Source: Saprospiraceae bacterium (GTDB lineage: Bacteria > Bacteroidota > Bacteroidia > Chitinophagales > Saprospiraceae). From it: 64,000 nucleotides of DNA. Position numbers and translations under genes: made by a program. The notes under the pieces were generated by a model. It saw only the letters and a list, made by a program, of their open reading frames with translations. It was not told where the DNA came from and made no database searches. The stretch spans positions 42,515 through 106,514 of the forward strand of contig JAQXDE010000048.1 of NCBI GenBank assembly GCA_029251525.1, written 5' to 3'. This document shows, one piece after another, positions 1-49,268 of the stretch. Every line of letters begins with the position of its first letter. Position 1 is the stretch's first letter.

Positions 1-15
1 AAAATCGAAATTGAA

Positions 16-1170: not shown

Positions 1171-1171
1171 T

Positions 1172-1200
1172 TTGCTTAAAAAAAGCATCATTTTTTTTGC
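1172..1200 (+). terminator. Weak hairpin plus T-run after ORF1
   Basis: TGCTT-AAAAA-AAGCA hairpin followed by TCATTTTTTTTG. Confidence 0.3.
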
Positions 1201-1262
1201 AATTAAAACTATCAATTGTTAGTTTTATACAACATTTGGGTCGTTAAAAAGTTATAAGTATA

Positions 1263-2336
1263 ATGAGCAATAAGTTTTACAAATTAAAAGTATCAGGAAT
1301 TGAAAAGTCTACTATAGATTGTTCAATTATTTCTTTCGATATCCCATTGGATTTGTACGAACAATTTTCCTTTAAACAAGGACAATATTTGACTTTGCAA
1401 ACTAAAATTGATGGTAAAGAAATCCGAAGATCTTATTCATTGTGCTCTAGTCCTTTAGATGGTGAATGGAAAGTTGGGATCAAAAAAATTGAAGATGGAA
1501 AATTCTCCACTTTTGCTAATGAGGTTTTAAAAGTAGGCGATGAGCTTGAGGTAATGCCTCCTAACGGAAATTTTTATGCTGAAATTGATAAAACCAATCA
1601 AAAAAATTATGTTGCTTTTGCTGCAGGTAGTGGAATCACTCCAATTTTTTCGATTATCAAAACTCATCTTCTTGAAGAACCAAAAGCAACGTTCAAATTA
1701 TTTTATATCAACCCAAAGGTTGTTTCTATAATCCTTAAGGAAGAATTGGAAGCATTGAAAAACCAATTCATGAGCCGTTTTGAGGTTTTTTACTTTTTAA
1801 CCAGAGAGCATAGAAGTGTTCCTTTATTGAAAGGAAGATTAAGTGAAGAAAAAATGGAAATGATTTTTAAAACTATTTGTGATACCAACCAAATTGATGA
1901 ATATTTTTCCTGTGGTCCAGAACCGATGATTTTGATGATTCGCGATTTCTTGTTGAAAAATAATGTAGGCAAAGAAAAAATTCATTTTGAATTATTCAAC
2001 ACGACTGGAAGTAATATAGAAACAAAGAAAAAAGTAGCGCAAACTTTTAAAGGAAAAGTGGCAGATATCACTATTTTGGAAGGAGGGAAAAGTATGAACT
2101 TTAAGATTGAACAAGGCTCAGACAATATATTAGATGCAGCATTAAAGAATGCGGCTGATCTTCCATTTGCTTGTAAAGGCGGAGTGTGTTGTACTTGTCG
2201 AGCAAAATTGATTGAAGGAAATGTAGAAGTTTTAGTAAATTATGGACTTGAGGAAGAGGAAATTGAGCAAGGCTATATTTTAACTTGTCAATCAATTCCA
2301 ACTAGTGATAAGGTTGTTGTTGATTTCGATAGTTAA
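1263..2336 (+). CDS. paaE: Phenylacetate-CoA oxygenase reductase subunit PaaE (ferredoxin-NADP reductase-like plus a C-terminal plant-type 2Fe-2S ferredoxin)
   Basis: N-terminal FNR-like FAD/NAD fold (RxYS motif, GSGITP). C-terminal cysteine cluster CKGGVCCTCRAK...C typical of a 2Fe-2S ferredoxin. Lies next to paaABCD. Confidence 0.8.
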   Translation: MSNKFYKLKVSGIEKSTIDCSIISFDIPLDLYEQFSFKQGQYLTLQTKIDGKEIRRSYSLCSSPLDGEWKVGIKKIEDGKFSTFANEVLKVGDELEVMPPNGNFYAEIDKTNQKNYVAFAAGSGITPIFSIIKTHLLEEPKATFKLFYINPKVVSIILKEELEALKNQFMSRFEVFYFLTREHRSVPLLKGRLSEEKMEMIFKTICDTNQIDEYFSCGPEPMILMIRDFLLKNNVGKEKIHFELFNTTGSNIETKKKVAQTFKGKVADITILEGGKSMNFKIEQGSDNILDAALKNAADLPFACKGGVCCTCRAKLIEGNVEVLVNYGLEEEEIEQGYILTCQSIPTSDKVVVDFDS

Positions 2337-2598
2337 ATCTCCGCCGACTGATTGGGTATTATTGATTTTTTTTCGAATGATGTCCTTACTTTTATTTACG
2401 AATAGCTATTATTTGAATTTTCTCTAAGTTGAAATTTTCTTATGGTGTTGGTGAGTATTTAGCACGGAGAAATACTTTTTATAACTGATAATTTTGCTTA
2501 TTTTTTCTTGAATTAAAAAGTAGGTTCTGAAAGTCGCAAGTCGCTAGAAATACAATGTTAAATAGTAAGAAATAAATTTTCCATAAAATCAAAGTATC

Positions 2599-3549
2599 AT
2601 GAATATTGAAGATTTAGAAAAAAAATTCCAAGACAGAATTGATGCAGGTCAGAAAATTGAACCTAAAGATTGGATGCCTGAAAAATATCGGAAAACACAC
2701 ATTCGACAAATTTCCCAACATGCTCATTCTGAAATCGTAGGAATGTTGCCCGAAGGAAATTGGATTTCTCGAACTCCAACACTCCGAAGAAAGGTTGGTC
2801 TCTTAGCAAAGGTTCAGGACGAGGCAGGACATGGACTATACCTTTATTCCGCTGCCGAAACATTAGGAGTTAGTCGGGATGAAATGTTTCACCAGCTCCA
2901 CACAGGTAAAGCAAAGTATTCTAGTATTTTTAATTATCCAACAATGACTTGGGCAGATATAGGGACTATTGGTTGGCTGGTAGATGGTGCAGCTATAATT
3001 AATCAAGTAATGTTAACTCGAACATCATTTGGGCCTTATGCTCGTGCAATGGTTCGAATCTGTAAAGAAGAAAGTTTTCACCAGCGTCAAGGTTTTGAAA
3101 TGATTTTAACTCTATGTAAAGGTACAGCCGTTCAGAAAGCAATGGCGCAAGATGCACTCAATAGATGGTGGTGGCCAAGCTTGATGATGTTCGGTCCTCG
3201 TGATGAGGAATCACCAAATACGGAACAGTCTGTCAAATGGAAAATCAAAAGAAAAACGAATGATGAATTGCGTCAACAGTTCATTGATATCGCAGTTGAA
3301 CAAGCAAAAGTTGCTGGACTGACAATTCCTGATCCTGATTTAAAATGGAACGAAGAACGGGGGCATCATGATTTTGGAGAAATAAATTGGAGTGAGTTCT
3401 GGCGGGTTGTAAAAGGAAATGGTCCCTGCAACAAGGAGAGATTGAAAGCAAGAAATGATGCTTGGAATAATGGCGAGTGGGTTCGCGATGCAGCCTTGGC
3501 TCATTCCGAAAAACAAGCCCAAAGGGAAGGATTAAAACAAGCTATTTAA
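2599..3549 (+). CDS. paaA: 1,2-phenylacetyl-CoA epoxidase catalytic subunit PaaA
   Basis: 316 aa, di-iron ferritin-like fold. Conserved stretches EAGHGLYLY and EESFHQRQG match the PaaA family. Confidence 0.85.
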
Positions 3550-3612
3550 TGCTTGGTGGATTATAAATCAAAAAATACTTTATAAGAAACTAAGAATTTA
3601 AAAATAAAAAAT

Positions 3613-3900
3613 ATGTCAAATCTAGAATTCCCTATTTGGGAAGTTTTTATAAGGAGTAAAAATGGCTTGGAGCATCGTCACGTCGGAAGCCTTCATGCAA
3701 CCGATTCAGTGATGGCAATGGAAAATGCACGTGATGTTTACACGCGAAGAGAAGAAGGAGTCAGTATTTGGGTAGTCGAATCAAAAAATATTACAGCTTC
3801 TAATCCTGAAAATCAAGGAGAACTTTTTGAACCTGCCAAAGATAAGGCCTACCGACATCCAACGTTCTATGAATTACCAATTGAGTTAAAACACATGTAG
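3613..3900 (+). CDS. paaB: 1,2-phenylacetyl-CoA epoxidase subunit PaaB
   Basis: 95-aa protein placed between paaA and paaC. Size and position fit PaaB. Confidence 0.75.
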   Translation: MSNLEFPIWEVFIRSKNGLEHRHVGSLHATDSVMAMENARDVYTRREEGVSIWVVESKNITASNPENQGELFEPAKDKAYRHPTFYELPIELKHM

Positions 3901-3985
3901 TTGCTGGTTAATTGTTGGTGTTGTGTAGTTAATGCCAATTAAGAAATTCTTAATTTTTGTTATTTTTTCTCAAAAAAAATTAAAC

Positions 3986-4738
3986 GTGAAAGATAAATTA
4001 TACGAATACCTTTTAATGTTGGGAGATAATTCGATGGTTCTTGGACATCGGTTGTCAGAGTTGTGTGGGCATGGACCTAGTTTAGAGACTGATATTGCAT
4101 TGACTAATATTTCATTGGATTTGTTTGGTCAGGTAAGAAGTTATTTTCAATATGCTGCCGAAATAAAAGGTGGGGATGTAACAGAGGATTCTATTGCATT
4201 TTTAAGATTTGATCGAGATTATAGAAATGTGATTTTAGTAGAACAACCTAATGAGGATTTTGCACATGTGATTGGTCGGCAGTTTTTGTTTGATGCATTT
4301 CACTTGCCTTTGCTTGAGCAATTGATGGAAAGTAATGATGAAATGATTGCAGCGATTGCTGCAAAATCTATCAAAGAATGTCGCTATCATTTACGATTTT
4401 CATCTTCTTGGGTGAAACGATTAGGCGATGGAACAATGGAAAGTAAAATAAAAATGCAATCAGCAATGAATCATTTTTTTCCATTCGTGAGTGAATTATT
4501 TCGAGAAACTTCGATTGAGAAAGAGATGAAGGAGTTGGGGGTTGGGGCAGATTTGAAAATGATAAAAGAAGTTTTTGATGAAAAAGTTAAAGAAGTTTTT
4601 TTTGAATCAACTTTAGAAATTCCGCAAAGCTCATCTAGGCAGACTAATGGAAAAACAGGTATTCATACCGAACAAATGGGTTTTATTTTAGCAGAATTAC
4701 AATATATGCAAAGAGCCTACCCCAATATGCAATGGTAA
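3986..4738 (+). CDS. paaC: 1,2-phenylacetyl-CoA epoxidase subunit PaaC. The ORF is open from 3932. The probable start is GTG at 3986, with ATG at 4016 as an alternative.
   Basis: Co-linear match to E. coli PaaC (LGDNxxVLxxRLxExCGHxPxLExDxALxNIxLDLxGQ). The C-terminus LHTEHLG...MQYLQR-like reads LHTEQMGFILAELQYMQRAYPNMQW. Confidence 0.75.
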   Translation: MKDKLYEYLLMLGDNSMVLGHRLSELCGHGPSLETDIALTNISLDLFGQVRSYFQYAAEIKGGDVTEDSIAFLRFDRDYRNVILVEQPNEDFAHVIGRQFLFDAFHLPLLEQLMESNDEMIAAIAAKSIKECRYHLRFSSSWVKRLGDGTMESKIKMQSAMNHFFPFVSELFRETSIEKEMKELGVGADLKMIKEVFDEKVKEVFFESTLEIPQSSSRQTNGKTGIHTEQMGFILAELQYMQRAYPNMQW

Positions 4739-4848: not shown

Positions 4849-5340
4849 ATGAATTCCACCCAGAATAAAAACATCCAAGATCTCCTCCGTGAAGTCACCG
4901 ACCCCGAAATCCCTGTACTCTCAATCATGGACATGGGCGTTGTAAGAGATGTTGAAGTAAATGGAAAATCAGTCTTAATAAAAATAACTCCAACCTATTC
5001 AGGCTGCCCAGCAATGGACACGATAGCTACTGATATCAAATTAAAATTAGATGAAGCAGGCTATGATACGACCGTAAAATTAATATTATCTCCAGCTTGG
5101 ACAACTGATTGGATTACAAAAAAAGGTAGGGCCGAATTAGAAAAATATGGTATTGCCGCACCACTTGACGAGACATCTGATAAGCATGCGTTAATTGATG
5201 GAAAACGAATTGTAAAATGTACAAACTGCGGTTCTACAAATACAAAAATGGTCAGTCAATTTGGCTCGACTGCTTGCAAAGCATTATTTCAATGTGAAGA
5301 TTGTCTTGAACCTTTTGATTATTTTAAGTGCTTGAAATAA
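4849..5340 (+). CDS. paaD: Phenylacetate-CoA oxygenase subunit PaaD (DUF59/MIP18-like Fe-S assembly domain plus a C-terminal Cys-rich segment)
   Basis: DPEIPVLSIMDMGVVRDV is a DUF59 signature. The C-terminal CxxC...CxxC reads CTNCG...CEDC. Lies in the paa cluster. Confidence 0.75.
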   Translation: MNSTQNKNIQDLLREVTDPEIPVLSIMDMGVVRDVEVNGKSVLIKITPTYSGCPAMDTIATDIKLKLDEAGYDTTVKLILSPAWTTDWITKKGRAELEKYGIAAPLDETSDKHALIDGKRIVKCTNCGSTNTKMVSQFGSTACKALFQCEDCLEPFDYFKCLK

Positions 5341-7698: not shown

Positions 7699-10188
7699 AT
7701 GAAGAAACTCAAAAATTACGCCCTCGGTTCATGGATTCAAGGCGAAGGGGAAGGCTCTCCACTTTACAATTCAGTTACTGGTGAAATCGTAGCTATGTCA
7801 ACTACAAAAGGATTGGATTTTGGAGAAATACTCGAGTATGGTCGAAGAAAGGGGGGAGCACCTTTGCGAAAAATGACTTTTCAAGAACGTGGTAATATGC
7901 TTAAAAAACTCGCACTTTATTTAACTAAAAGAAAAGAGCAGTTTTACGAGGTGAGTTATAAAACTGGAGCAACAAGAGCAGATAGTTGGGTGGATATCGA
8001 AGGTGGTTTCGGAAATTTATTTTCTAACGCATCTTTGCGAAAAAATTTTGCGAATCAAACTTTTCACGTCGATGGTGATTTTGTAGATATTTCGAGAGGA
8101 GGAAGTTTTGCGGCGCAACACATCATGGTTCCTAAGCGAGGGGTAGCGATTCATATCAATGCGTATAATTTTCCAGTATGGGGTATGCTCGAAAAGTGTG
8201 CGACGAATTGGATGGCAGGAGTTCCTGCAGTAGTAAAACCAGCTACAGCTACTTCATTTTTAACGGAGGCAGTTGTTCGAGAAATTATCGATTCTGGAAT
8301 CTTACCAGAAGGAGCATTACAATTGATTTGCGGTTCAGCTCGGACAATTTTGGATAGGGTAGATTCGCAAGACGTAGTGACGTTTACAGGTTCGGCCAGT
8401 ACAGGTCAAATGTTGAAAGCACATCCAAGAATTATTTCGGAATCAGTTCCATTTAATATGGAAGCAGATAGTTTGAACTGTTCAGTTCTCGGAGAAAAAG
8501 CAACGCCTGATACTCCAGAGTTTGATTTATTTATTAAAGAAGTTCGAAAAGAAATGACTTCTAAATGTGGTCAAAAATGTACTGCGATTAGAAGAATTAT
8601 TGTTCCCGAATATTTAGTCGAAGATGTGAAGATTGCCTTAGGAAAACAATTAGGAAGAATAGGAATTGGAAATCCGACTGCTGATGGTGTTCGCATGGGC
8701 GCACTGGCAAGCAGGGATCAAGTGATAGAGGTTCGTGAAAGAGTGAAAGAATTAGCTCAAACGGCAGAGATTGTTTATGGTAGTTTAGATAAGATAGATT
8801 TAATTGATGCAGACTACGATAAAGGAGCATTCCTTTCTCCAATTTTATTATTAGAAAAAAATCCATATAAAAATTTAGGTGTTCATGAGATTGAGGCATT
8901 CGGACCAGTAAGTACAATTATGCCGTATAAGGGAATTGAGCAAGCAGTTGAATTAGCTCAAATGGGCAAAGGTTCGTTATGTGCATCCATTGCAACTTTT
9001 GATGATGCAGAGGCGAGGGAATTTGTAGTAGGTGCGGCAAGCCATCATGGTCGAATTTTAGTACTCAATCGAGAGAATGCCAAACAAAGTACAGGCCATG
9101 GTTCTCCTCTTCCAACTTTAGTTCACGGTGGGCCAGGACGAGCAGGAGGTGGAGAAGAAATGGGTGGGATGCGAGGTATCAACCACTATCTTCAAAGATG
9201 TGCGGTGCAAGGAACACCAACGACACTTTCCGCAATTACAGGTATTTATCAACCCAATGCAAAAGTAACAGAAACACCTCAACATCCTTTTAAGTATTAT
9301 TTCGAAGAGATTGAACCTGGAATGTCATTACTTACTCACAAACGAACAATTACTAACTCGGATATTCAGAATTTCGCTAACTTGACTTGGGATGTTTTTT
9401 ATGCTCATACAGATATCACTTCTTTGGATGGAACTATTTTTGAAAAACGAGCGGCGCATGGCTATTTTTTGTTGGCAGCAGCGGCAGGACTTTTTGTTCA
9501 TCCTGCTAAAGGTCCAGTTGGTGCAAATTATGGTTTAGATAATTGTCGATTTATTCGTCCCATTTATCATGATGATACGATTCAAGTACGTTTGACGTGC
9601 AAGGAAAAAGTAGAACGAGACAGCCGTGGAAAAGAACATCCATCAGGTGTGGTCAAATGGTATGAAGAAATTTTTGATCAAGATGGTGAATTGGTTGCGA
9701 TGGCTACTATTCTAACTTTGGTGCAAAAAAAATCTCCGTTTCCAACAATCACAAAGTCCTATTTACAAGGAAAATTAAATGCGCTGGCAGAAAGTACTCA
9801 GCCTAAATGGGGGAAAATGACTGCACAGCATTTAGTCGAGCATATGGAATTTTTCACTCAAATGGCACTAGGTAATATCGAAACGGAAATCACAACACCT
9901 GAAAAATATATGGAAAAGACACAGGATTCTCTATGGGATTATCGTTCTATGCTAAAAGAGTTTGACCATCCAGCTTTGAAAAAAGGAGAAGTGGAAGATT
10001 TACGTTTTGGAAATTTAGAAGAAGCAAAAGATGCTTTTTGGAAAGCTTATGAAGCATTGGAAATTTGGTTTAAAGAGAATCCAAAAGGGACGGTGAAGAA
10101 TACGGTGTTTGGTTGGTTGACGAAATATGAATTTCAATTATTAAATCGGAAACATTGGGCACATCATCTGGAACAGTTTGGGGTTTGA
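7699..10188 (+). CDS. paaZ: PaaZ-like bifunctional oxepin-CoA hydrolase / 3-oxo-5,6-dehydrosuberyl-CoA semialdehyde dehydrogenase, with an additional C-terminal DinB/DUF1569-like domain of about 135 aa
   Basis: N-terminal aldehyde dehydrogenase fold (FTGSASTG, catalytic Cys region KCGQKCTAIRR, EIEAFGP). Central MaoC-like (R)-hydratase domain (around aa 530-690). Extra tail (about nt 9784-10188) rich in His (HLVEHMEF...HWAHHLEQF), resembling a DinB_2 four-helix-bundle metalloprotein. Confidence 0.7.
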   Translation: MKKLKNYALGSWIQGEGEGSPLYNSVTGEIVAMSTTKGLDFGEILEYGRRKGGAPLRKMTFQERGNMLKKLALYLTKRKEQFYEVSYKTGATRADSWVDIEGGFGNLFSNASLRKNFANQTFHVDGDFVDISRGGSFAAQHIMVPKRGVAIHINAYNFPVWGMLEKCATNWMAGVPAVVKPATATSFLTEAVVREIIDSGILPEGALQLICGSARTILDRVDSQDVVTFTGSASTGQMLKAHPRIISESVPFNMEADSLNCSVLGEKATPDTPEFDLFIKEVRKEMTSKCGQKCTAIRRIIVPEYLVEDVKIALGKQLGRIGIGNPTADGVRMGALASRDQVIEVRERVKELAQTAEIVYGSLDKIDLIDADYDKGAFLSPILLLEKNPYKNLGVHEIEAFGPVSTIMPYKGIEQAVELAQMGKGSLCASIATFDDAEAREFVVGAASHHGRILVLNRENAKQSTGHGSPLPTLVHGGPGRAGGGEEMGGMRGINHYLQRCAVQGTPTTLSAITGIYQPNAKVTETPQHPFKYYFEEIEPGMSLLTHKRTITNSDIQNFANLTWDVFYAHTDITSLDGTIFEKRAAHGYFLLAAAAGLFVHPAKGPVGANYGLDNCRFIRPIYHDDTIQVRLTCKEKVERDSRGKEHPSGVVKWYEEIFDQDGELVAMATILTLVQKKSPFPTITKSYLQGKLNALAESTQPKWGKMTAQHLVEHMEFFTQMALGNIETEITTPEKYMEKTQDSLWDYRSMLKEFDHPALKKGEVEDLRFGNLEEAKDAFWKAYEALEIWFKENPKGTVKNTVFGWLTKYEFQLLNRKHWAHHLEQFGV

Positions 10189-10653
10189 TTATATATGTTG
10201 AAATATTGAAAATAAATTTGGGAGAGTTTCAAAGCGATTTGACCTAGATAGTTAAGTTAATTAGAACTAAATTAGGTTAAATCGATTTAAAAATTAGTGG
10301 ATACTTTAACACTGCTAAATTTCCGAAGAGATTTTTTGTAAATGGGTTTTCTAATGATAGTACTTAAAGCTTAAAATCTAGCTTAGCTTTACATATAATA
10401 TTAAATGATTTTCCCTTTTTTAAATTATCAATGTTTATTGTTTTTACTATCTCAGCAGGACTAATGCTGACATTAGCAATTGTAAACAATGGCTCTTCAA
10501 ATGACAATCATCTCGTGTTATCTCAACTAATTATTGCTAAAGGACAGTCTCCAAAGTATACTGATTGTTGATAATGTTACCATCCTAAGTTCTATCATCA
10601 GACAGTAGCCAAACTTTGAACTTGGTTTGAAATTGATTCCAGAAAAAATCAAA

Positions 10654-13600
10654 TTATCTTAGCCTAGCTTCATAGACTTGCATCCCAAAGTTATTATTTA
10701 GAATAAGTACTAAAGGTTGCTTTTGACTATTTTCAACTGTAGCTAATGATCGTACATCTAAGTATGCTATGATTCCGTTTTCAGAAGGAGAAATAGGGTT
10801 AAAACCACCTTTTCCATCTCCCAACAACATCGTTCCAATTCCTGCATCCGAACGAGTAGTTTCTATTTCTCGTTCATAATAATTCCCTGCCAAAAGAATA
10901 TCCATGTGACCATCTCCATTCCAGTCACGAGGAAGAATTCCAAAAACAGGTGCAGTTTGTGCAGCCATCGGAAGTTTATGTATTTCAAATTCCCCTCCTC
11001 CTAGATTTTCAATATAAACTGACTCAAACATTTTCACCTCATGCTCAATAGCTCCTTCTGCCAAATCACCTAAAACTTCATCAAAAGAAGCTTTGGCAAA
11101 TTCATTATAGGTTTTGAATTTCTCCTTAATAAATGGCATCTGTTGTGAAGAACATTGTCTTCCCCGTACAGGGCACAATGATCCATCTTGATCATAATAA
11201 GCTAAATAAATATCATTACTTCCATTGCCATCAAAGTCTTTAACTTTTACTGAAAAAGGTCGTTCAGGTGAAGCTTTGAATTTTAAGTTTAATCCTAAAT
11301 TACCAGCAATCAAATCCTGATCGCCATCGCCATCCATATCAGCAGCAACAATTCTATTCCACCAACCTCCTGTATTTTCCAATTCTTTTTCGGCTGTTAC
11401 ATTCTCTAATTTTCCACCATTATTTTGATAAATAGAAATAGGCATCCATTCTCCTACTACAATTAGATCTTCATCTTTATCTTGATCGATATCCATCCAA
11501 TGTGCATCGGTTACCATTCCTGGTTTCACTAATTCTGGAGCCAGTTCTTTTGTTTTATCTGTAAATCGACCTTGTTCATTGATTAATATATAACTCTTAG
11601 CTTGGTGACCATATTTATTTGAAACTTGACGGCCACCTACAAAAAGATCCAAATCTCCATCGCTATCAATATCACCTGCTTTAGCTACTCCTCCACTAAT
11701 TTTCATACTAGGAAGTTTCCCTTTAGTGAAATTTCCTTTCCCATCATTTATATAAATTCGATCTTGCAAAGCAGCATTTCCTTCTTTAAATTCATTTCCT
11801 CCACTTACTACATAAAGATCAAAATCCTTATCTCCATCTGCATCAAAAAACAAGGCATTTACATCTTCTGATTTTTTATCCTTTGCCCATGTTTGAGATT
11901 TATTTTTAGAAAATTGATTATTGACTCCCTGCAAAAAGAGTACTCCAGCTTGCCCCGCTGCACCTCCTAAATATACATCATCCAAACCGTCTCCATTCAC
12001 ATCGGCAGTTGCGCTACATGGCCCAAGGTGAGACATCCTATGAGGTATCAATACCTCTGAAGCGTAATCATCGTGTTTGTTTTCTTGATGTACATAATCA
12101 ATGCCAGTATTTAAAGTTACATCTTTGAAAAGTGTAGGTTTTGCTATGTTTTGATTACTCGCTCCTTTGCTTCCATCGGATTGTTTTAAAGTCAATTTTT
12201 GATTGACTTTAATATCTTTCATTTCTAATTGTCTGCCATCTAACCACTCAACTTTTAACCGATCAATGGTAGTTACTTTTCCTAATCCGAAATGTAAAAC
12301 TGGGTCATTAGTAGACATGTATCCTCTATTTGGAGATACTTCTAATAATTGCATTTTATCTCCATAGTAAATCCACGCTTTGGCTCCGTAGGACAATCGA
12401 TTCGCTCCATGATCTCCCTCAAGTTTCAATTTAAAATAACTATTCCCATTAATTTGCGTCGCTCTATTTTCATAAATAAATGAAGCATCATCAATATTAC
12501 TAGTTACCAAATCCATATCACCATCATTGTCCAAATCAGCATAAATTGCTCCTTGTGTCCAACTCAAATCGCCTACTCCCCATTCCTCAGCCTTGTTTGT
12601 AAAACTTAGATCATCATTATTTACAAACATATAGTTTTGTAATTTCACAGAAGGGGCTAACTCTATCAACTTTAGAGAACTAATCTTTGATTTTTCGCCT
12701 TTCGCTCTAGCAATATTCGCCAAAGAATCCATCAATACCTTACGATCATGGATGTAATCTTTATTTCTAGTGTCTTTCGGTTGTCCATTAGAAACATAAA
12801 GATCTTTGTCTCCATCATTATCATAATCTGCAAAAAGCGTTGCCCAGCTCCAATCAGTTTGTGCTACCCCCGCCATTTGAGCAATTTCACTAAAAACTCC
12901 ATTTCCATTATTCAACTGAAGATTGTTAAACATATATTGGTAGTGGAACCCATTATTGGCTAATCCCCAAAACTTTTCAGGATTCATTCCACTCATATTT
13001 GCCTTTGTTCGATAATTATCGGCAGGAGCCATATCTGCAGAGTATAAATCAATCCAACCATCATTATTAAAGTCAGCCAAATCTACTCCCATAGTAAAGT
13101 TACTGATGTGTCTCATTGCTTTATTAATCACATTTGTAAATGTTCCATCACCATTATTTTGGTAATAAATATCTGGCTCCTCATAATCAGAAGCAATATA
13201 AATATCTGGCCATCCATCATTATTCAAATCACTAACTGTTGCACTCAAAGTGTAATTATAATTAGAAATTCCTGCCTGGTTACTTACATCAGTGAATTTC
13301 CCATTTCCTTCATTTCGAAACAACCGATCTGTATATTTTGACTTGTCAGCTTGAGCCTCATTTCCATATTTAGCATGACGACTTACAAAGGGTTCATTCC
13401 CTACATATAAATCCATATTACCATCTTTGTCATAGTCAAAAAAGTTAACTGCAGTACAATGTCCATTATCATCAATACCATATTCAGCTGCTTTTTCAGA
13501 AAAGGTTAAATCACCATTATTTATATAAAGATGATTCCGTCTTTTACTTGGATCTGCTATGATAAATTTTCCCACATAGAAATCGAGGTATCCATCATTG

Positions 13601-14004
13601 TTCACATCAGCGACAGTTACACCTGTTGACCAAGTTCCTTTTTTGATTCCTGATTTTTGAGTGATATCCTCAAACTTCATATTGCCTTTATTCAAGTACA
13701 ATTTATCCTCAACCATATTTCCTGCAAAATATAAATCCTGCAATCCATCATTATTTATATCAATAACTGCTATACCTCCTCCATTAAAAACTGCATCTAG
13801 AAGAATGTGATTATAGGTTTCATCTTCATTAATTTGATTAATAAAGTCAATCCCACTTTCTTTTGAGGTTAACTTTTTAAACATTGGAGTTGCTTTTCCA
13901 TTCTTCCCTTTTGCTGGAATTGGAGATTTAGACTTTTGACAACTCGAAAAAATAAAGAGAATTGCTATTGTTAAAATAAAAGTGATGGAATTTCGGTAGT
14001 TCAT
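10654..14004 (-). CDS. CRTAC1-family / FG-GAP (VCBS) repeat lipoprotein with an ASPIC/UnbV domain
   Basis: 1116 aa. Lipoprotein signal (IFSSCQKS). At least 12 FG-GAP-like calcium-binding repeats (DINNDGLQDLY, DVNNDGYLDFY, DYDKDGNMDLYV, DLNNDGWPDIY, DFNNDGWIDLY, DYDNDGDKDLYV, DLDNDGDMDLV and others), plus an ASPIC/UnbV-like segment. Confidence 0.75.
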   Translation of the reverse strand: MNYRNSITFILTIAILFIFSSCQKSKSPIPAKGKNGKATPMFKKLTSKESGIDFINQINEDETYNHILLDAVFNGGGIAVIDINNDGLQDLYFAGNMVEDKLYLNKGNMKFEDITQKSGIKKGTWSTGVTVADVNNDGYLDFYVGKFIIADPSKRRNHLYINNGDLTFSEKAAEYGIDDNGHCTAVNFFDYDKDGNMDLYVGNEPFVSRHAKYGNEAQADKSKYTDRLFRNEGNGKFTDVSNQAGISNYNYTLSATVSDLNNDGWPDIYIASDYEEPDIYYQNNGDGTFTNVINKAMRHISNFTMGVDLADFNNDGWIDLYSADMAPADNYRTKANMSGMNPEKFWGLANNGFHYQYMFNNLQLNNGNGVFSEIAQMAGVAQTDWSWATLFADYDNDGDKDLYVSNGQPKDTRNKDYIHDRKVLMDSLANIARAKGEKSKISSLKLIELAPSVKLQNYMFVNNDDLSFTNKAEEWGVGDLSWTQGAIYADLDNDGDMDLVTSNIDDASFIYENRATQINGNSYFKLKLEGDHGANRLSYGAKAWIYYGDKMQLLEVSPNRGYMSTNDPVLHFGLGKVTTIDRLKVEWLDGRQLEMKDIKVNQKLTLKQSDGSKGASNQNIAKPTLFKDVTLNTGIDYVHQENKHDDYASEVLIPHRMSHLGPCSATADVNGDGLDDVYLGGAAGQAGVLFLQGVNNQFSKNKSQTWAKDKKSEDVNALFFDADGDKDFDLYVVSGGNEFKEGNAALQDRIYINDGKGNFTKGKLPSMKISGGVAKAGDIDSDGDLDLFVGGRQVSNKYGHQAKSYILINEQGRFTDKTKELAPELVKPGMVTDAHWMDIDQDKDEDLIVVGEWMPISIYQNNGGKLENVTAEKELENTGGWWNRIVAADMDGDGDQDLIAGNLGLNLKFKASPERPFSVKVKDFDGNGSNDIYLAYYDQDGSLCPVRGRQCSSQQMPFIKEKFKTYNEFAKASFDEVLGDLAEGAIEHEVKMFESVYIENLGGGEFEIHKLPMAAQTAPVFGILPRDWNGDGHMDILLAGNYYEREIETTRSDAGIGTMLLGDGKGGFNPISPSENGIIAYLDVRSLATVENSQKQPLVLILNNNFGMQVYEARLR

Positions 14005-14462
14005 AAGGACAATATATATTAAAATGATACAAAAAAATTTAATGAATCTATTTTTTTATTAAAACTTGAGACATTAAAAGGCTTAATATAACAAATAATT
14101 CGCCAATTAATCATGAATCAGATCCCTCTTAAGTAGTCCCTCTATCTTTTTTTAATTAAAAAAAATCTCCTTCCGATATTTCCATGTATCACAAGAGGAT
14201 TTAGAATCTATATAGCCTAGTTTAATCTTATACACCAAACATCAGGTCTTTTAGTTTAGAACCCTGTAATTTGGAGCTTAATTTAGGCTTCATTAAACCT
14301 AAATATTGACATTTTTATATCTTTTTTTAAAGTTTATAAATTGATGAGGCAATTAACTTTGACAAATATCTTAATTTGAATAGTTATTCAATATAGTTTG
14401 AAACTTTTGATAGTACTTTTCACCCGAAGAAATGAATGCACTATATCTATCCATAACCTGTA

Positions 14463-14476
14463 ATAAGCGATCAATT
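14463..14476. repeat. Direct repeat copy 1, ATAAGCGATCAATT. It overlaps the stop codon of the islet ORF.
   Basis: Exact 14-mer shared with 15227-15240. Both copies are followed by an A-rich run ending AAAAAC. Confidence 0.5.
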
Positions 14477-15215
14477 AAAAAACCAAATTGACATATTTTT
14501 GATAAATATCTTGGCCTTTATCTGGCGATTTTGCAACTGTTTTCATTTTTATCAAAAACTTATTTAGTTTTTCATACATCGTCTCCCAATCATCTTCTTT
14601 TTGACATTCTTTGAGATTTATTTTGTGTCCAATGACTTTAGTATAATCTTTAAGGAGTTCGATAAACTTTGCTTTTAATACTCTATTATTTTCTTTTAAA
14701 AATTCTGTTTGATAATGAATATTATTCAAATCAGCATTCATTCTTATCGTAAAATCTAAAATACAAGAAACTTGATTCAATTCTTTTTCTCTATTTTTCT
14801 TTCTCCCATTACCAAATAAAGAGGCCACCAAAGTATATTTCAACGAAATATATGGATTGGTTTCTAAAAGTGAAGGAATAACTACTGCTTTCTTTTTCCC
14901 CTTTTGTTTTTTGAGCACTTCTTGAGCTTTTTTAAATTCAGGAAGTGAGTGAGGGTTAGAGAGTAAAATTACATTTTGATACGTTTGCTAGGACGTAAAA
15001 TGGTGATCTAATCCTAAGATTTTTTCGTAAATCATTTTAATTAATTCTACCCCTTTGCGATAGCGAATTTTACTAAGTTCAAGTTGATAATCTTCCTCTG
15101 CCACTTTTAAATTTCCTCTAGCAATATCTTTTTTCAATAATATATTTACAATTTTCCGTATATCTTCATTATCCTCCTTTTCACTTAAATAAAGAATTAC
15201 CTTATCAAGTTCCAT
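14475..15215 (-). pseudogene. Hypothetical 246-codon ORF interrupted by a single in-frame TAG (14988-14990). The two halves are reported separately in the ORF track (14988..15215 and 14475..14918).
   Basis: Both ORFs are in the same frame (15215-14918 = 297 = 99 codons). The 23 codons between the TAG and the downstream annotated start contain no stop. The locus is AT-rich with no recognisable domain. Confidence 0.5.
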
Positions 15216-15226
15216 TAACTCACTTT

Positions 15227-15240
15227 ATAAGCGATCAATT
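15227..15240. repeat. Direct repeat copy 2, ATAAGCGATCAATT. It lies 11 nt upstream of the islet ORF start codon.
   Basis: Exact 14-mer shared with 14463-14476. Confidence 0.5.
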
Positions 15241-16284
15241 TCTAAAAACTAAACTTGATTGGTCTCCTCTAATTCATATATAGTCTCTTGAAAAAAATTG
15301 AGACATAAATGAATCACTCTCTTCAAAACCAAATAAAAAATAATTGACTTTATTTAGGTACTTTAAAAAATGTTGATAAAAATAATGCCTATTCTATTTT
15401 GACTTTTCAGCAATCTGCCATAGTTTAAATAGCTATCTTCATTTAAGAAGTTACTTTCATAATTAAATATTCTACTGTTTCTATATACAGATATGATTCT
15501 TAGTTAAAAATCAATAAATTTCTTTTTAATTGAATCGCAATTTGCTTGTCTACCACTTTAGCATTCTCTATCAAAAAAATACCATTTTTAAAGTAAAAAA
15601 ATTTTGTTTTAGCGCTCATGGAAGCTTTGATAAAGTATATCCCCTCCTTTTCTTTAATTAAAATTGCTTTTGCACACAGTTTCTTTTTTCGATATTGGTG
15701 TTCAACCATAGAATTAATGCGATTCATACCCAAGCTTCTGACGATGCGTTTTTGATTTTGTTAGGGACTTTAATAATCTATTACATCGTACTTCTGTTTG
15801 GTCGCAATTATATGGTCGTTTGTATTTTATTTATTTTGATAATTGGCCAGCAGGTAGGTGGCAATCAGGTGTTCGATAATGTTAAATGTGGGTAGAGCTG
15901 CGTTGACTTTGGCATTGCTTCCTTTTTCTCTATTTTTAATTGTTTTTTTTTAAAGGCTTAAAAAAGTGATGGAAATTATTTTCGGAAAGAGGTTTTAAGT
16001 CACTGAAAGAAAATTCGGATTGGATATTTTCGATTTTAAATATTGGTTTTTGGCGTTCATTATTTTATTAACAGCGGTTGGTAGAGACTATAGTTTTATG
16101 AAAGTTATATATATATGTTTTCAGGGATTTCAACTGCGCTGATTCCACTTTTGAAAGGGTTTGATTTGGCCGTTAACTTTTTGAAAAAAAATAAAGTTGG
16201 ATTTTAATTCCCACTTGAGCTTTTTGGTTTTGTTGATTCTTTATGTCATTCCTATTTTGAACTTGATGGGGGAATTGTAGGAGT

Positions 16285-17784
16285 TTATTTCTTCGAAATG
16301 ATTTTTATCAATTGACATTCGCTCCAATTATTGATTTGCTCATAGTCATACCTTTTGTTGATCTCACCTTTCACATTGGACTCACACATCATTACTTTTT
16401 CTCCGATCTCAAAATCCATTGTTGACTCTACAAATTTAAAACTATCGTCATTTTGTAATTGATTGATTTCTCTAACCTTAATATCAAATCCTTTCCGTCG
16501 ATATAATTTTTGTAAAAAAACAACTTGCCCATTGATATCCCAATGCAAAATATTATATTCTAACGGAATAGACCTATGCATAAATCCTTCAAATAATTCT
16601 CGTTCAGGAGTCAGCCATAATTTATTAAAAGTGTAACTATCGCTTATGCGTTTAAAATATGGATTTCCGAAAATCGCTAAACCAATTACCCCTGCTAAAA
16701 TGAATTTGGAGAAACGAAACGAATTTTTTTCTTTTGAAAAATAATCAAAAGCGATTCGAATTATTTGTTCAATTCCTAAACCAACAACAACTGCAAACAA
16801 TGGTAAAAGTGGTACATCATACCAAATTAAATTTGTCTGAGAAAATGAGATGACTAAAAGAAAAAATGCTCCACTAAAAAACAATAGTCTTACAAATTCT
16901 TTAGTTGTCTGTTTTGCAAAAAAAGTAGCTAGAAAGCCAAGCGGTAAAAAATATAACCAAGGGACAAATCGCTCTTCATAAATTTTTCTCATATGAAAAA
17001 AGGTAGATCTATTATTTCCTTCTTGTGTTTCAAAATATCGTCCACGGATATCATTTTCTAAAACTGCTTCTAAGTATCCAGGGTTTTGATTTTCTCTCAA
17101 AAAATAATAACCTAAAACAATAGTCAAAAAAATAGAAATAGCTCCATAAAAATGTGGAGAAGTAAAAAGTACTCGTATTTGTTTTTTCCAAATTAAAAAT
17201 AAAAGGAGGGGAGGGAGTAAAACAAAACCCATGATACTTTTAGTCATGACTGCTGCTGTTATACTCAATGCTGAAGCATAGATTAATTTTTTTTTTTGTC
17301 TAGGATGGGTAGAATTTATCCATGCGAAAAAGAGAAAAACGGTTAGAGTAGTCCAGAGGGTAAGTAATGAATCATAGTCACCTGTACGAGTTACGTGATT
17401 AGAAATAAAACCTTGAGTGGTCAGTAAAACTAGTGCGGAGCAAAAACCTAAAAGTTGGTTTTTTAAATAATTTTTACAGAAAAAGAAAAGTAATAAAGTT
17501 GTGGCTAATCCAGCCAAAGCTGAAGGTAGTCGAACACCTAAAACTCCCACGCCAAATATTTTGAAACATAAAACTTGGAGCCAAATTAACAAAGGTGGTT
17601 TTGTATTCCATAGATCAGGTTCACCTTGGTAATGAGTAACCAACCAATTTCCATTTTCTAACATTTCAAGTGCGTTTACTGCTTGACGAGACTCGTCCCA
17701 CAAGTGCAATGGTGCAACATCTAAGTGCAAAAATAAGGGTAAACAACACAATGTTAGAAAAATGAAGAAAACGATTTTATTCAT
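16285..17784 (-). CDS. Glycosyltransferase family 39 / ArnT-PMT-like GT-C membrane glycosyltransferase
   Basis: 499 aa with about 10 predicted TM helices. The N-terminal GT-C signature LWDESRQAVNALEM...KPPLLIWLQ is typical of ArnT/PMT_2 (polyprenyl-phosphate sugar transferases). Confidence 0.7.
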   Translation of the reverse strand: MNKIVFFIFLTLCCLPLFLHLDVAPLHLWDESRQAVNALEMLENGNWLVTHYQGEPDLWNTKPPLLIWLQVLCFKIFGVGVLGVRLPSALAGLATTLLLFFFCKNYLKNQLLGFCSALVLLTTQGFISNHVTRTGDYDSLLTLWTTLTVFLFFAWINSTHPRQKKKLIYASALSITAAVMTKSIMGFVLLPPLLLFLIWKKQIRVLFTSPHFYGAISIFLTIVLGYYFLRENQNPGYLEAVLENDIRGRYFETQEGNNRSTFFHMRKIYEERFVPWLYFLPLGFLATFFAKQTTKEFVRLLFFSGAFFLLVISFSQTNLIWYDVPLLPLFAVVVGLGIEQIIRIAFDYFSKEKNSFRFSKFILAGVIGLAIFGNPYFKRISDSYTFNKLWLTPERELFEGFMHRSIPLEYNILHWDINGQVVFLQKLYRRKGFDIKVREINQLQNDDSFKFVESTMDFEIGEKVMMCESNVKGEINKRYDYEQINNWSECQLIKIISKK

Positions 17785-17860
17785 TATTTTCCGAAAATAG
17801 ATTTTGTCAAAACTTAAAATTTAAAGAACGGTGTAAGATAGTTTAAATCATTTTTTTTTC

Positions 17861-17900
17861 CTAAAAAACAAAAAGCACAACCTCTAATGAGATTGTGCTT
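17861..17900 (-). terminator. Rho-independent terminator after arsM
   Basis: On the minus strand, an 8-bp stem AAGCACAA/TTGTGCTT with a 12-nt loop is followed by TTTTTGTTTTTT. Confidence 0.6.
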
Positions 17901-17922
17901 CCATATTTTTATAAATTATTTA

Positions 17923-18975
17923 TTAGCAACAACTTGCTGCATCGCTTCCTTCCTCTGAGCTAAAAGGCATTGCTCCACCGCAACCTTCAAAGACTCCATA
18001 ATGTGTATCCCAAGTTCCATGAAAATTAAAATGATCAGCATATCGAGTAGCTTGTAACATTAAAAAAGTGTTACCACAAACAGTTATTATTTTACCTTTT
18101 GGAAAATTATGATGATCGTCTAAGTCAAAACTATTCACATTATTTTTAATAGTCCCTTTATAGGTAACGGCTTGACCGTAGTCCTCACATTCGTCTTCAA
18201 GGCCATTAATCTTCCATAATCGATAAGTCACAGAGAAAAATCGAATGTTTCCACATTTTTCTTCAACTTCTTTATTTTCTATTGTAATAGGATTATTCTT
18301 TACACTCCTAGGGTCTGTAAAACCAACTTTTCGAGACGTTCTCAGAAAGTCATTCCAGTACAAAGCACCACTCAAACACTCTCCCCAAAGCACAGGATCC
18401 GCCTGCAATTTTTCACTGATTCGACGATCACTGTAGACATCGCTAAAGTACATTTCACCTCCAGGCTTTAGTAGTTTGTAAACATCCGCTAAAACTTTTT
18501 CTTTATCTGTTGCAAGGTTAATAACGCAATTTGAAATGATTAAGTCAAAACTGTTTTCGGCCAAATCCAACTCTTCTAATTTTTCAATATTTCCTTTAAG
18601 GAATTTGACATTGGAGGTTTTATAGCCAAATTTTTCCGTATGATAATCAATATATCGATTGGCAACATCCAATTGTTCGTCAGTCATATCTACACCAATC
18701 ACTTCTCCCGAATGACCGACGAGTTGTGATAATATATAGCAATCTCTTCCACTTCCTGATCCTAAATCAAGGATTCTTAAGCCTTCTAATTTTGAAGGAA
18801 TTGCTAAGCCGCAACCGTAATATTTCATCATGACTTCATCATGGATATTACTCAATGCTACTTTGATGTGCTGCGCAGGTTCTTCCATTGTGCAGCATGC
18901 ATTAGTTTTTAGATCCTCGCTTTTTGATAACTCCTTACCATAGTATTCTTTGATTTCCTCGTGCTTTTCTTTCAT
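17923..18975 (-). CDS. arsM: Arsenite S-adenosylmethionine methyltransferase ArsM
   Basis: SAM-binding motif ILDLGSGSGRDC. ArsM-specific As(III)-binding cysteines in conserved context: NACCT, YYGCG, SNCVINL and WGECLSGA. C-terminal Cys pair. Confidence 0.75.
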   Translation of the reverse strand: MKEKHEEIKEYYGKELSKSEDLKTNACCTMEEPAQHIKVALSNIHDEVMMKYYGCGLAIPSKLEGLRILDLGSGSGRDCYILSQLVGHSGEVIGVDMTDEQLDVANRYIDYHTEKFGYKTSNVKFLKGNIEKLEELDLAENSFDLIISNCVINLATDKEKVLADVYKLLKPGGEMYFSDVYSDRRISEKLQADPVLWGECLSGALYWNDFLRTSRKVGFTDPRSVKNNPITIENKEVEEKCGNIRFFSVTYRLWKINGLEDECEDYGQAVTYKGTIKNNVNSFDLDDHHNFPKGKIITVCGNTFLMLQATRYADHFNFHGTWDTHYGVFEGCGGAMPFSSEEGSDAASCC

Positions 18976-19622
18976 TATATTTTTTTAATAAAAATTATTT
19001 TTTGGTTTCGTCCGAAATCTACGAAATCCTACAGTATCAAATACTAGTTCTAAAGTAGAACAAATTTCGTTAGATTTTTTATATAAACCTATCATATATT
19101 TTACTTCTTTTGAAGTTTTCATAAAAATTAATTCTCAGGAAAAATTGTTTTTATAAAAAAAGCTGCTATACTAATTATTACACAAGACGTTTACTCGACC
19201 TTTCGCAGAATAAGATTGGGCTGCAATAAATGAATCTGAAATAGTATGGTAAATAATCTTTCCGCTTATGGAAACGTTTAAAACTGAAATAGGTTTTGAA
19301 GTCTCCCTTGTGGTACAATCGGGCAAAGGATAATTTATTTTCTTGTTATTATATTTGATAGATAATAAGGGTATTTGTTTAATTATTTTTCAATTTAGAA
19401 TTATGGTGTCTCTCAAAATAAATTTTATTAAAAGTAGATTTTAGGATTAGGAATGGATTTTAATTGATTGAAGTTTCAATATAAATACGTTATAAAATGT
19501 CTACTAATTATATGAAATTTAATGGTTATTTTAAAATGGCATAATTTGTAATTTCATCTTCAAATTATTTCTCATTAAAATTAATCCTGCTAGTTTTGTA
19601 TTTCATTTGAAAAAATAAAAAA

Positions 19623-20378
19623 ATGCAAGACGGCTATATTAAAATAGAAACTTTAAAAAAAGGATTAGCACAAATCACTTTTTTCCATCCAAAACATAAT
19701 TCACTTCCGAGTCACTTATTAAAAGAGTTGGAAAAAACTATCATCGCAGCAGGCGAAGATCCTGAGGTGCAAATCATTATTTTGAAAAGCGGAGGAGACC
19801 GAACTTTTTGTGCAGGTGCAAGTTTTGATGAACTTATTTCTATCAATGATTTTCCAACGGGTAAAAAATTCTTTATGGGTTTTGCTAATGTAATTAATGC
19901 ATGTCGTAAGTGTCCAAAGTTAATTATTGGACGTGTTCAAGGAAAAGCTGTGGGAGGTGGCGTTGGCTTGGCTTCGGCAGTAGATTATTGTTTGGCGACC
20001 AAATTTTCATCGATAAAACTAAGTGAGTTGAATGTTGGAATTGGACCATTTGTAGTTGGGCCAGCGGTGGAGCGAAAAATTGGAATTTCGGCGATGAGCC
20101 AAATTACGATCGATGCAAATTCTTTTCAATCAGCAGAGTGGGCGAAGGCGAAAGGTTTGTACACGGATGTTTTTGAGGATGTTGAAGCACTTGATGAAGG
20201 TGTAATGAAAATGGGGGATTATCTTTTATCGACAAATCCAGAAGCTCAAAGTATGTTAAAAAAGGTTTTTTGGGAAAATTGTTCTCATTGGGATGAGTTA
20301 TTGGAAACAAGAGCAGAAACAAGTGGGAGATTAGTCTTGTCGGATTATACGAAAGAGGCGTTGAAAGCGTATTCGTAA
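19623..20378 (+). CDS. Enoyl-CoA hydratase/isomerase (crotonase) family protein, possibly PaaG/PaaF-like
   Basis: 251 aa with a crotonase fold: FCAGASFDE oxyanion-hole segment, GKAVGGGVGLA. Confidence 0.75.
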   Translation: MQDGYIKIETLKKGLAQITFFHPKHNSLPSHLLKELEKTIIAAGEDPEVQIIILKSGGDRTFCAGASFDELISINDFPTGKKFFMGFANVINACRKCPKLIIGRVQGKAVGGGVGLASAVDYCLATKFSSIKLSELNVGIGPFVVGPAVERKIGISAMSQITIDANSFQSAEWAKAKGLYTDVFEDVEALDEGVMKMGDYLLSTNPEAQSMLKKVFWENCSHWDELLETRAETSGRLVLSDYTKEALKAYS

Positions 20379-20454
20379 TTTTTGCCACGGGCTATTATTG
20401 ATTTTAAGACTTTCCGCTGCCTTATTTATCAGATCTGCAAAGAGCCGCCCTATG

Positions 20455-20844
20455 TTAAAGTGAATCATCCACTTCATTTAACTCTTCTTCGTTAATGTCG
20501 CCAAACCACTTTGTCATTTGCTCACGTGCATTTTCCCGAACTTCATCATTGATATATCCAGCGATCAAAACTAGCCCAAAACTCAAAACTCCCAGGTCAT
20601 CTGTATAACCTAGAAATGGCGTCAAATCTGGAATACCGTCAATTGGTGAAAGGAAATATCCTAATGCACCCAAAACTACTCGTTTTGCCCAAGCAGGAGT
20701 ATCTGATCGTTTGAAGGCGTAATATAAAAGGAGTGCGGTATAAACTGTTTTTTGACCAGCTTGAATCGCATAGTTTTTTATCTTTTCCCAAAAGTTGAAT
20801 TCGGAAAATTTATCGGAGTATTTTTTAAATGGATTTTTCTTCAT
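20455..20844 (-). CDS. DUF1232 (YkvA-like) small membrane protein. The ORF is open to 20958, and the probable start is M39.
   Basis: Conserved YkvA/DUF1232 core ...ALLLYYAF...SPIDGIPDLTPFLGYTDDLGV... Confidence 0.55.
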   Translation of the reverse strand: MKKNPFKKYSDKFSEFNFWEKIKNYAIQAGQKTVYTALLLYYAFKRSDTPAWAKRVVLGALGYFLSPIDGIPDLTPFLGYTDDLGVLSFGLVLIAGYINDEVRENAREQMTKWFGDINEEELNEVDDSL

Positions 20845-21020
20845 TATTTGCTCTGTTTTTTGACTTACGTCAGTATTCGAGATTATTTTTAATTTAAGTT
20901 TAATAAAAAAAGGCACATCATTTTTTCGATAAAACCCACCAAAAAGAGGGTAGTCCACATCTTTTATTTAAGACGTCGTCGAAACTTACTACTACATTTT
21001 TCATCAAAAAACTTTTAATC

Positions 21021-29460: not shown

Positions 29461-29657
29461 GATTTTATTTTTTAATTGTAAAAATAGCAATTAATCTTAT
29501 TGTAGTAATTTGAATTGGATTTTTGAAAAAATATTATCCTGATTTTATTTTAATAAGGGGTTGATATTCAATGTTTTAACGGGATTTTTAAAAATACTTT
29601 AGAAGGTAGGAAAACCAAATTATACGAATAAACATTTAATATAAAATCAAATGTATT

Positions 29658-30240: not shown

Positions 30241-30537
30241 ATTTACACTTGATCAGAAAATTTATCAAACCAGGGAGGGGCAGCTTGCGGAAACATAAAT
30301 CGAAATTTCCTCTCGTAAAAGGGAAGAATTGTTAAATATACCTTCTTTTTTGAAGTAAATTTTTCAATCAACCAAAGTTAGTCATTACGTTTGCCGAGAA
30401 ATGAAAGAGATTTGTCGAGATATCATGATTTTTATTTACAATAAAGCTAGTTTTATAGAGAAAGGTTACCTGTGAGTTACTATAGAGAAATTCTTCCATA
30501 AAACTTAAAAGTCAACTAATCAAAAAAAAATAGAAAA

Positions 30538-45470: not shown

Positions 45471-45506
45471 GAAATATTTGTGGAGACCATTTAAAGTAAA
45501 AATGAA

Positions 45507-45548
45507 AAGAGCGTTTCAAGTAAAACTTGGACGCTCTATTTCTTTGGA
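45507..45548 (+). terminator. Rho-independent terminator after the M28 peptidase
   Basis: AGAGCGTttCAAG-taaaa-CTTGgACGCTCT followed by ATTTCTTT. Confidence 0.55.
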
Positions 45549-45602
45549 TTATAAAATTCTATTGGTTACAGAGCCTAAGCTTTGCGAGTAGGCAAAAAAA
45601 AA

Positions 45603-46612: not shown

Positions 46613-46626
46613 ATAAAAAACAAACC

Positions 46627-48492: not shown

Positions 48493-48514
48493 AGAATTCA
48501 GTAGAATAAGATAA

Positions 48515-49262: not shown

Positions 49263-49268
49263 GAAAAA

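Follow-up and report, generated by a model that had tools for sequence, protein, structure and literature searches.

The interval at 14005–16284 of a 64,000-nucleotide stretch of contig JAQXDE010000048.1 from a Saprospiraceae bacterium (the whole of this stretch is referred to below as the window) lies between a CRTAC1-like gene and a GT39 gene and can be compared with four kinds of described system. These are bacterial pseudogenes and operon relics, cassettes flanked by attachment (att) sites or target-site duplications, the DUF805b RNA (Rfam RF02914), a candidate cis-regulatory motif of Bacteroidota, and genes subject to programmed amber read-through or pyrrolysine recoding. An earlier reading of the DNA alone (hereafter the sequence-only reading) had described an AT-rich islet with one orphan gene of 246 codons on the minus strand, interrupted by a single TAG and bracketed by two copies of a 14-mer, and had proposed a horizontally acquired mini-island now decaying. 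We regard the interval, with a probability of about 0.92, as the fossil of an accessory operon that is still intact in related Saprospiraceae, brought about by ordinary pseudogenisation. With bacterial pseudogenes and operon relics it shares clear similarity to intact genes in a syntenic place, several disabling lesions, relaxed constraint, drift of GC content to the non-coding level, a probable internal deletion and segregating lesions. There is no difference in kind between it and these, and the parent family here is one without a Pfam or NCBIfam model or a structural relative.

To place the 246-codon open reading frame (ORF), a large protein collection was searched with it, and 184 homologues were recovered, the best of which (P0001) is 79% identical (E=4e-122); the gene is thus no orphan. 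Nearly all of these proteins are 365–420 amino acids (aa) long, some 145 residues longer than the ORF, and where their sources are named they are metagenome-assembled genomes (MAGs) of Saprospiraceae, Lewinellaceae or unclassified Bacteroidota. Alignment of P0001, P0004 and P0021 to the window by tblastn gave a minus-strand match reaching from about 15336 to 14225, spread over three frames and crossing several stops (for P0001, E=2e-154 over 15308–14286, plus pieces in two further frames). The contig encoding P0001 (locus L014) is 79% identical in DNA over a stretch that begins at 15336, passes the natural stop and a terminator-like hairpin and ends at about 14160, and this terminator-like region is also matched by blastn in locus L005 (9190–9249 against window 14202–14144). 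By the same method the relic is 76.6% identical to L017 7702–8797, compared with 80.6% for the adjoining CRTAC1-like gene of that locus. Since similarity to L014 ends at 15336, the start codon has gone together with codons 1–21, the N-region of the signal peptide, and the ATG at 15215 that appeared to start the ORF aligns with an internal alanine codon of the orthologue. What had been taken for the one plausible gene of the interval covers only codons ~62–306 of ~391, with homology continuing in other frames on both sides, and is merely the longest stretch between lesions.

Two of the earlier statements on this ORF were borne out. No ORF between 14005 and 16284 exceeds 150 aa, the longest being 147 aa, and no domain is recognisable: Pfam and NCBIfam searches gave none above threshold for the reconstructed 246-aa ORF and only sub-threshold noise for the intact 391-aa family, the two partner proteins, the regulator and the cargo described below. 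No Pfam domain was found among the 184 homologues, and PDB sequence and profile searches returned only a weak match to the Rad50 coiled coil (E=2e-4).

Lesions were catalogued by walking the reading frame of L014 along the DNA alignment. Relative to this closest intact orthologue, codons 1–21 are lost and seven premature stops and four frameshifts have been acquired, giving 11 point lesions (Table 1). The frame from 15215 to 14475 does contain a single in-frame TAG, as had been noted, and this codon is an ordinary nonsense mutation, one of the 11; the TAA that closes the frame is present because of a 1-nucleotide (nt) deletion seven bases upstream. Four independent metagenome contigs of the Joint Genome Institute (L001–L004) are 99.6% identical to the window over 8471–20919 and carry the same TAG and both 14-mers. 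Across the 2280 bp of the interval they differ from the window at 24 positions, none of which falls on a stop codon or a catalogued frameshift. These contigs also have an extra 1-nt deletion at 14533, absent from the window, which alters the C-terminus of the 147-aa ORF (P0013), and the relic is still gaining lesions within the population.

Codon changes specific to the window lineage were counted only where L014 and L017 agree, and these are crude counts rather than likelihood estimates of dN/dS (nonsynonymous to synonymous substitution rates). There were 32 nonsynonymous and 3 stop changes against 36 synonymous ones, compared with nonsynonymous to synonymous counts of 5:29 for L014 and 13:49 for L017 (together 18:78; p=4e-5, Fisher test), which puts the ratio at roughly fourfold that of the intact genes (odds ratio 4.2). 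For the 246-codon ORF alone the counts were 24:23, those of the two intact orthologues being 12:52 (p=5e-4). Differences to the conspecific contigs amount to 1.05% in the islet (24/2280 nt) and 0.31% in the mostly coding flanks (32/10,168 nt; p=3e-5), a 3.3-fold higher density of single-nucleotide polymorphisms that is similar to that of other intergenic DNA (10/1326 nt, 0.75%). On a gene of 27–30% GC, the window lineage has undergone 59 GC to AT and 57 AT to GC changes (13 and 33, respectively, in L014), which by arithmetic from these counts is a per-site AT bias of roughly 2.4-fold that the intact lineages do not show. All of these simple counts agree in direction, and the relic is drifting as dead, neutrally evolving DNA.

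The base composition of the islet had been judged AT-rich by eye, and its GC content is indeed lower at 14–16 kb (0.27–0.28) than the whole-window mean of 0.337. However, the islet value of 0.281 is that of ordinary non-coding DNA in the window, which averages 0.265 (range 0.195–0.353 for stretches of at least 150 nt) against 0.354 for coding DNA when ORFs of at least 120 aa are masked as coding. Intact orthologues of the 391-aa gene have a GC content of 0.30–0.32 and the relic one of 0.27–0.28. The AT-richness is the neutral-DNA composition of this genome and not a foreign signature.

A second relic was found beside the first. In L005 and L012 a 148-aa protein without signal peptide, bearing the motif FGNPKYEDCRNFGICK and referred to here as partner A, is encoded just after a regulator gene. 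The two proteins matched the window at 15691–15446 on the minus strand by tblastn (E=1.6e-7 and 6e-7), and in a hidden Markov model (HMM) of seven partner A-type proteins positions 56–144 of 146 align to 15706–15452, across an in-frame stop at 15500–15502. The N-terminal third of the gene, which includes the Cys-motif part, is unrecognisable, and the 85-aa partner relic, used as query in a protein search, recovered only itself.

Next to this relic, the block at 15438–15380 shares 85% identity with a short stretch of intergenic DNA 3' of partner A in L005–L008, L011–L013 and L017, and it contains the position of the DUF805b motif. The copies in L012, L005 and L017 score 43.7–46.1 bits and that of the more distant L009 scores 36.9 bits. 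In these four species (L005 6230–6265, L012 2900–2935, L017 5283–5318 and L009 5136–5172) the motif stands 22–31 nt before the start codon of the first cargo gene. The window sequence is orthologous to these above-threshold copies, but with 24.0 bits it falls below the gathering score of 35.6, and bases are substituted in each of the stem arms as well as in the conserved 3' tail. A further departure from RF02914 is that none of the genes 3' of the motif in these loci has a DUF805 domain in the Pfam scans run. At the gathering threshold the motif is absent from the more distant L010, L096, L097 and L098.

Between the DUF805b element and codon 22 of the 391-aa gene there are about 2.4 kb in the relatives and about 50 nt in the window. 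The missing segment holds, in the relatives, variable genes, the gene of a secreted second partner (partner B) and codons 1–21 of the 391-aa gene; in L017 the blocks homologous to the window are 5266–5323 and 7702 onwards. Judging from the order of these blocks, an internal deletion of about 2.4 kb is the simplest reading.

The nearest relatives, Saprospiraceae MAGs, were found with the CRTAC1-like protein, one genome per species being scanned. In L011–L013 an intact 393-aa family member is located 213 nt upstream, in the same orientation, of a CRTAC1-like gene 87% identical to that of the window, and L017 has, upstream of a CRTAC1-like orthologue (83% identical), an intact gene of 391 aa whose product is 87% identical to P0001. 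The cluster is absent from L016 and L018 (CRTAC1-like 88–89% identical), where a nicotinamide mononucleotide (NMN) transporter gene is followed by 1.4–1.55 kb without ORFs and then by the CRTAC1-like gene. In L005 and L006 the order is GH2, NMN transporter, a 506-aa regulator on the opposite strand and then genes of 148, 238, 67, 148 and 384 aa, with no CRTAC1-like gene; L007 and L008 have the same cluster from the regulator onward, on contigs that end before the GH2 and NMN-transporter genes. Because it is found intact, deleted or pseudogenised at one position in close relatives, the cluster occupies a fixed place and yet is dispensable.

The intact gene set is recurrent in its core and variable in its contents. 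A secreted ~148-aa Cys-motif protein followed by the ~390-aa protein was found in nine of the nine independent loci examined (L005, L012, L015, L017, L009, L010, L096, L097 and L098). The non-secreted paralogue occurs nearby (L096), overlapping the 3' end of the 390-aa gene (L097, L098) or after the regulator (L005, L012, L017), and a homologous TPR-like regulator of ~506 aa is present in L005, L012, L017 and L096. A protein search with partner B gave nine relatives. The cargo between the conserved ~148-aa paralogues differs in every species, consisting of 238- and 67-aa genes in L005 (6296–7958), six genes, one of them encoding a PQQ-like beta-propeller, in L012 (2966–7980), and 189- and 353-aa genes, one with an aspartyl-protease domain, in L017 (5343–7574). 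Beside the pair in L098 there are two tandem SdpC-toxin/SdpA modules (1–4467). Upstream of the partner A gene in L017, two similar tandem segments of ~100 nt (4300–4400 and 4593–4700; …AGTCGAATGTTTTTTTGAAAAAA…GTTAGG[GA]TGTCCAAAAACGA…) could be duplicated promoter or operator regions.

From these comparisons the intact operon comprises the TPR-like regulator, partner A (~148 aa, with Cys motif and no signal peptide), a DUF805b leader (in one clade only), variable genes, the secreted ~148-aa partner B and the secreted ~391-aa all-helical protein, whose gene in some species adjoins the CRTAC1-like gene. In the window lineage, selection on the operon was lost; an internal deletion of ~2.4 kb, for which the block order argues, would have brought the DUF805b leader directly before codon 22 of the 391-aa gene; and the remaining DNA has since drifted with an AT bias, accumulating stops and frameshifts, the one step that can be seen directly. 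No function is expected in the interval other than in the upstream region of the CRTAC1-like gene (14005 to ~14110).

Among the alternatives, that of a small foreign cassette inserted between the CRTAC1-like and GT39 genes, with the 14-mers as attL/attR or a target-site duplication, was the one put forward in the sequence-only reading, and the locus does resemble such cassettes in having an exact short direct repeat on either side of its longest ORF, in being AT-rich relative to its coding flanks and in having relatives (L016 and L018) without the cluster. The 14-mer ATAAGCGATCAATT was confirmed as exact in both copies and as present nowhere else in the window. However, both copies are in-frame coding sequence of the ancestral gene, copy 1 falling in FSIDRLL, which is part of the family consensus (alignment A1), and copy 2 aligning with K-I-N-H-L-Q of P0001. 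Homology to the intact gene extends 96 nt past copy 2 (upstream) and 240–300 nt past copy 1 (downstream), so that neither copy can be the edge of an insert. At the site orthologous to copy 2, L014 already has 10 of the 14 bases, the 14-mer is absent from all 91 fetched non-conspecific loci, and L011–L013, L017 and L014 carry the intact gene without the repeats, a finding that the sequence-only reading had itself named as decisive against the cassette. The window has six distinct pairs of direct repeats that measure 14 nt or more and lie no further than 1 kb apart, and first- and third-order Markov shuffles of it give a mean of 1.5–1.8 such pairs (at least one pair in 67–71% of shuffles), so that the pair is unremarkable, as had been cautioned, at an expectation higher than the 0.2–1 then estimated. 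No integrase, transposase or remnant of one was seen among the interval ORFs and domain scans. As for an empty site, the gene upstream of the gap in L016 and L018 is the NMN transporter and not GT39, no single 14-mer is left there, and their similarity to the window stops at 14054 and 14110, respectively, hundreds of bases from the repeat. An inserted cassette is on this evidence highly improbable, and the 14-mers are coincidentally identical stretches of old coding sequence; the decay that had been proposed for the mini-island stands, given the lesions and the relaxed constraint, and its insertion as a cassette does not. Gene conversion between the two IDRL sites was considered as a source of the identity and judged unnecessary because of the 10/14 identity in the orthologue and the chance expectation. 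There is next to no chance that faulty assembly or sequencing of a low-complexity AT-rich region produced the stops and frameshifts: several frameshifts do lie in A/T homopolymer runs, but seven of the lesions are base substitutions and not indels, and such error is excluded because four independent assemblies, from different samples, agree at every catalogued lesion. The lesions are real.

It could also be supposed that the gene is alive, either by read-through of the TAG (suppressor tRNA, pyrrolysine or programmed recoding) or as a protein split into 75 and 147 aa, since there is but one stop in 246 codons of a conserved frame that is 79% identical to an intact homologue, and the same ORF structure recurs in many metagenome contigs (P0013 on 53). 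We consider this very unlikely. The TAG codon is Leu in orthologues (A1 consensus HHFTSLQTYQN) and is accompanied by ten other point lesions, the start and signal peptide have been lost, and the conserved C-terminal 85 codons are hit by four stops and three frameshifts. The codon changes inside the ORF are balanced, unlike those of the intact orthologues, and the additional frameshift of the conspecific contigs falls inside the 147-aa ORF. No tRNA gene is present in the window, and TAG terminates 6 of its 46 long ORFs, which makes it a normal stop under the standard genetic code. A different proposal, independent of the 14-mers, is that the whole cluster from the regulator to the 391-aa gene is a horizontally mobile island of foreign origin that is now being lost. 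This would accord with its patchy distribution among species whose CRTAC1-like proteins are 83–89% identical (present in L012 and L017, absent from L016 and L018), with variable cargo between conserved ends, with the GC content of the intact family genes, which is below the coding mean, and with the SdpC-toxin/SdpA modules of L098. Against it, the position is constant, following the NMN-transporter gene in L005/L006 and preceding the CRTAC1-like gene or a 131-aa gene in L005, L011–L013 and L017; no integrase or transposase is found at the cluster ends; the DNA identity of the relic to L017 is close to that of the adjoining CRTAC1-like gene; and the named family members all belong to the Bacteroidota groups listed above. 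We think a mobile island unlikely, and a horizontal origin of the whole cluster is a separate question that is not needed to explain the interval.

A number of points weigh against the interpretation of the interval as a fossil operon. The context of the window (GT39, aldehyde dehydrogenase) is unlike that of all relatives, and a rearrangement has to be assumed. The L012 neighbour (8001–9182, compared with window 14222–15336) is 44% identical to the relic in protein, though the CRTAC1-like gene is 87% identical, and strict orthology with the L012 locus is uncertain because of this low value; the contrast would reflect either very fast evolution of the family or allele exchange between lineages. 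L014 and L017 are better comparators than L012, P0001 and L017 being at least 79% identical to the relic. The species closest by the CRTAC1-like protein (L016, L018) are without the cluster, and we infer its ancestral presence from L012, L017 and L005. The origin of 15707–16284 is unproven, as this segment has no detectable homologue: when 15690–16300 was compared with all fetched loci by sensitive blastn and nhmmer, no match other than the conspecific contigs was obtained. Lastly, the 75-aa and 147-aa ORFs may retain residual transcription or translation.

Table 1. Features of the interval and its borders, in window coordinates.
Feature	Position	Strand	Remarks
CRTAC1-like gene, FG-GAP/UnbV_ASPIC, 1116 aa	start at 14004		left border of interval
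Upstream region of CRTAC1-like gene	14005..14159	-	conserved with relatives lacking the cluster
Terminator-like hairpin and T-run, relic	14160..14215	-	alignable with L014 and L005; one stem mismatch in window
Pseudogene of 391-aa family (secreted all-alpha protein), orthologue codons 22–391	14222..15336	-	tblastn, L014 DNA alignment, L017 blastn
246-codon ORF of the sequence-only reading, orthologue codons ~62–306	14475..15215	-	least damaged central part
Natural stop of 391-aa gene	14222-14224	-	
Heavily damaged 3' end of pseudogene	14228..14373	-	
Premature stop, Gln390 to TAA	14228-14230	-	
+1 frameshift	~14276	-	
Premature stop, Tyr372 to TAA	14283-14285	-	
+1 frameshift	~14332	-	
Premature stop, Gln349 to TAA	14353-14355	-	
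Premature stop, Glu343 to TAA	14371-14373	-	
14-mer copy 1	14463..14476	+	reverse complement in ancestral frame ATT GAT CGC TTA, I-D-R-L of FSIDRLL
-1 frameshift, codon 306	~14483 (14483..14484)	-	creates TAA at 14475-14477
Premature stop, Leu137 (TTA in L014) to TAG	14988-14990	-	amber codon of the sequence-only reading
Premature stop, Gln58 (CAA) to TAA	15225-15227	-	abuts upstream 14-mer
14-mer copy 2	15227..15240	+	E-I-D-R-L in N-terminal helix; also ATT GAT CGC TTA
Premature stop, Trp50 (TGG) to TAG	15249-15251	-	
+1 frameshift, codon 34	15297	-	
Putative deletion junction	15337..15385	-	~2.4 kb at this place in relatives
Decayed DUF805b RNA motif (RF02914)	15386..15421	-	inside 59-nt conserved block 15380-15438
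Partner A relic (~148-aa gene without signal peptide), C-terminal two thirds	15452..15706	-	tblastn and family HMM
Unassigned AT-rich non-coding DNA, ~580 bp	15707..16284		3' of GT39 gene; stops in all frames
GT39 gene, PMT/PMT_2, 499 aa	stop at 16285		right border of interval

A conserved, ORF-poor stretch of 1–1.6 kb was also observed among the relatives (L005 9156–10803, L017 8815–9967, L012 13208–14674, L016 13377–15017, L018 7293–8888 and L014 1450–1938). It is 70–86% identical in DNA across species, matches no Rfam family, lacks any ORF longer than 58 aa in L005, and is located 3' of the 390-aa gene in some species and 3' of the CRTAC1-like gene in others. Ahead of the CRTAC1-like gene of L016 and that of L018, pieces of it of ~35–110 nt occur a second time (e.g., L016 9142–9242 against 14085–14325), which suggests that the CRTAC1-like gene moved into or within this region. 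The window retains only its first ~60 nt (14144–14202).

Nowhere in the window did an Rfam family reach its gathering score, and a simple promoter and terminator scan gave nothing above shuffles and no terminator call, the relic hairpin at 14160–14215 included. Four other stretches without an ORF of at least 120 aa (29491–30537, 45471–46626, 48493–49268 and 18976–19622; 650–1160 nt, GC 0.235–0.287) may be relics or non-coding genes.

The interval is thus a case of ordinary gene decay in an uncultured Saprospiraceae population, involving neither a mobile element nor recoding. For annotation, 14222–15336 and 15452–15706 call for a pseudogene label, and none of the three ORFs of 75, 147 and 77 aa should be entered as a hypothetical protein. 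The side value of the interval lies in the intact counterpart, a gene set of Saprospiraceae, conserved and uncharacterised, in which variable cargo is combined with a DUF805b leader; beyond this parent locus and the tie between it and the DUF805b motif, nothing merits a further look. The pattern of presence, absence and pseudogenes among near relatives marks the gene set as dispensable and fast in its turnover. Tentatively, the relic may point to an undescribed accessory operon that is widespread in Saprospiraceae and consists of a regulator, the ~148-aa pair, variable cargo and a ~391-aa long-helix bundle protein for which no structural relatives were found. From the signal peptides, the variable cargo and the SdpC neighbours, our guess is that the intact set is an accessory locus of secreted effector or toxin type. 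If such a locus under DUF805b control does exist, its repeated loss, by deletion in L016 and L018 and as pseudogenes in the window, would represent turnover of an antagonism system, and these loci would provide the first testable gene context for DUF805b outside DUF805 genes.

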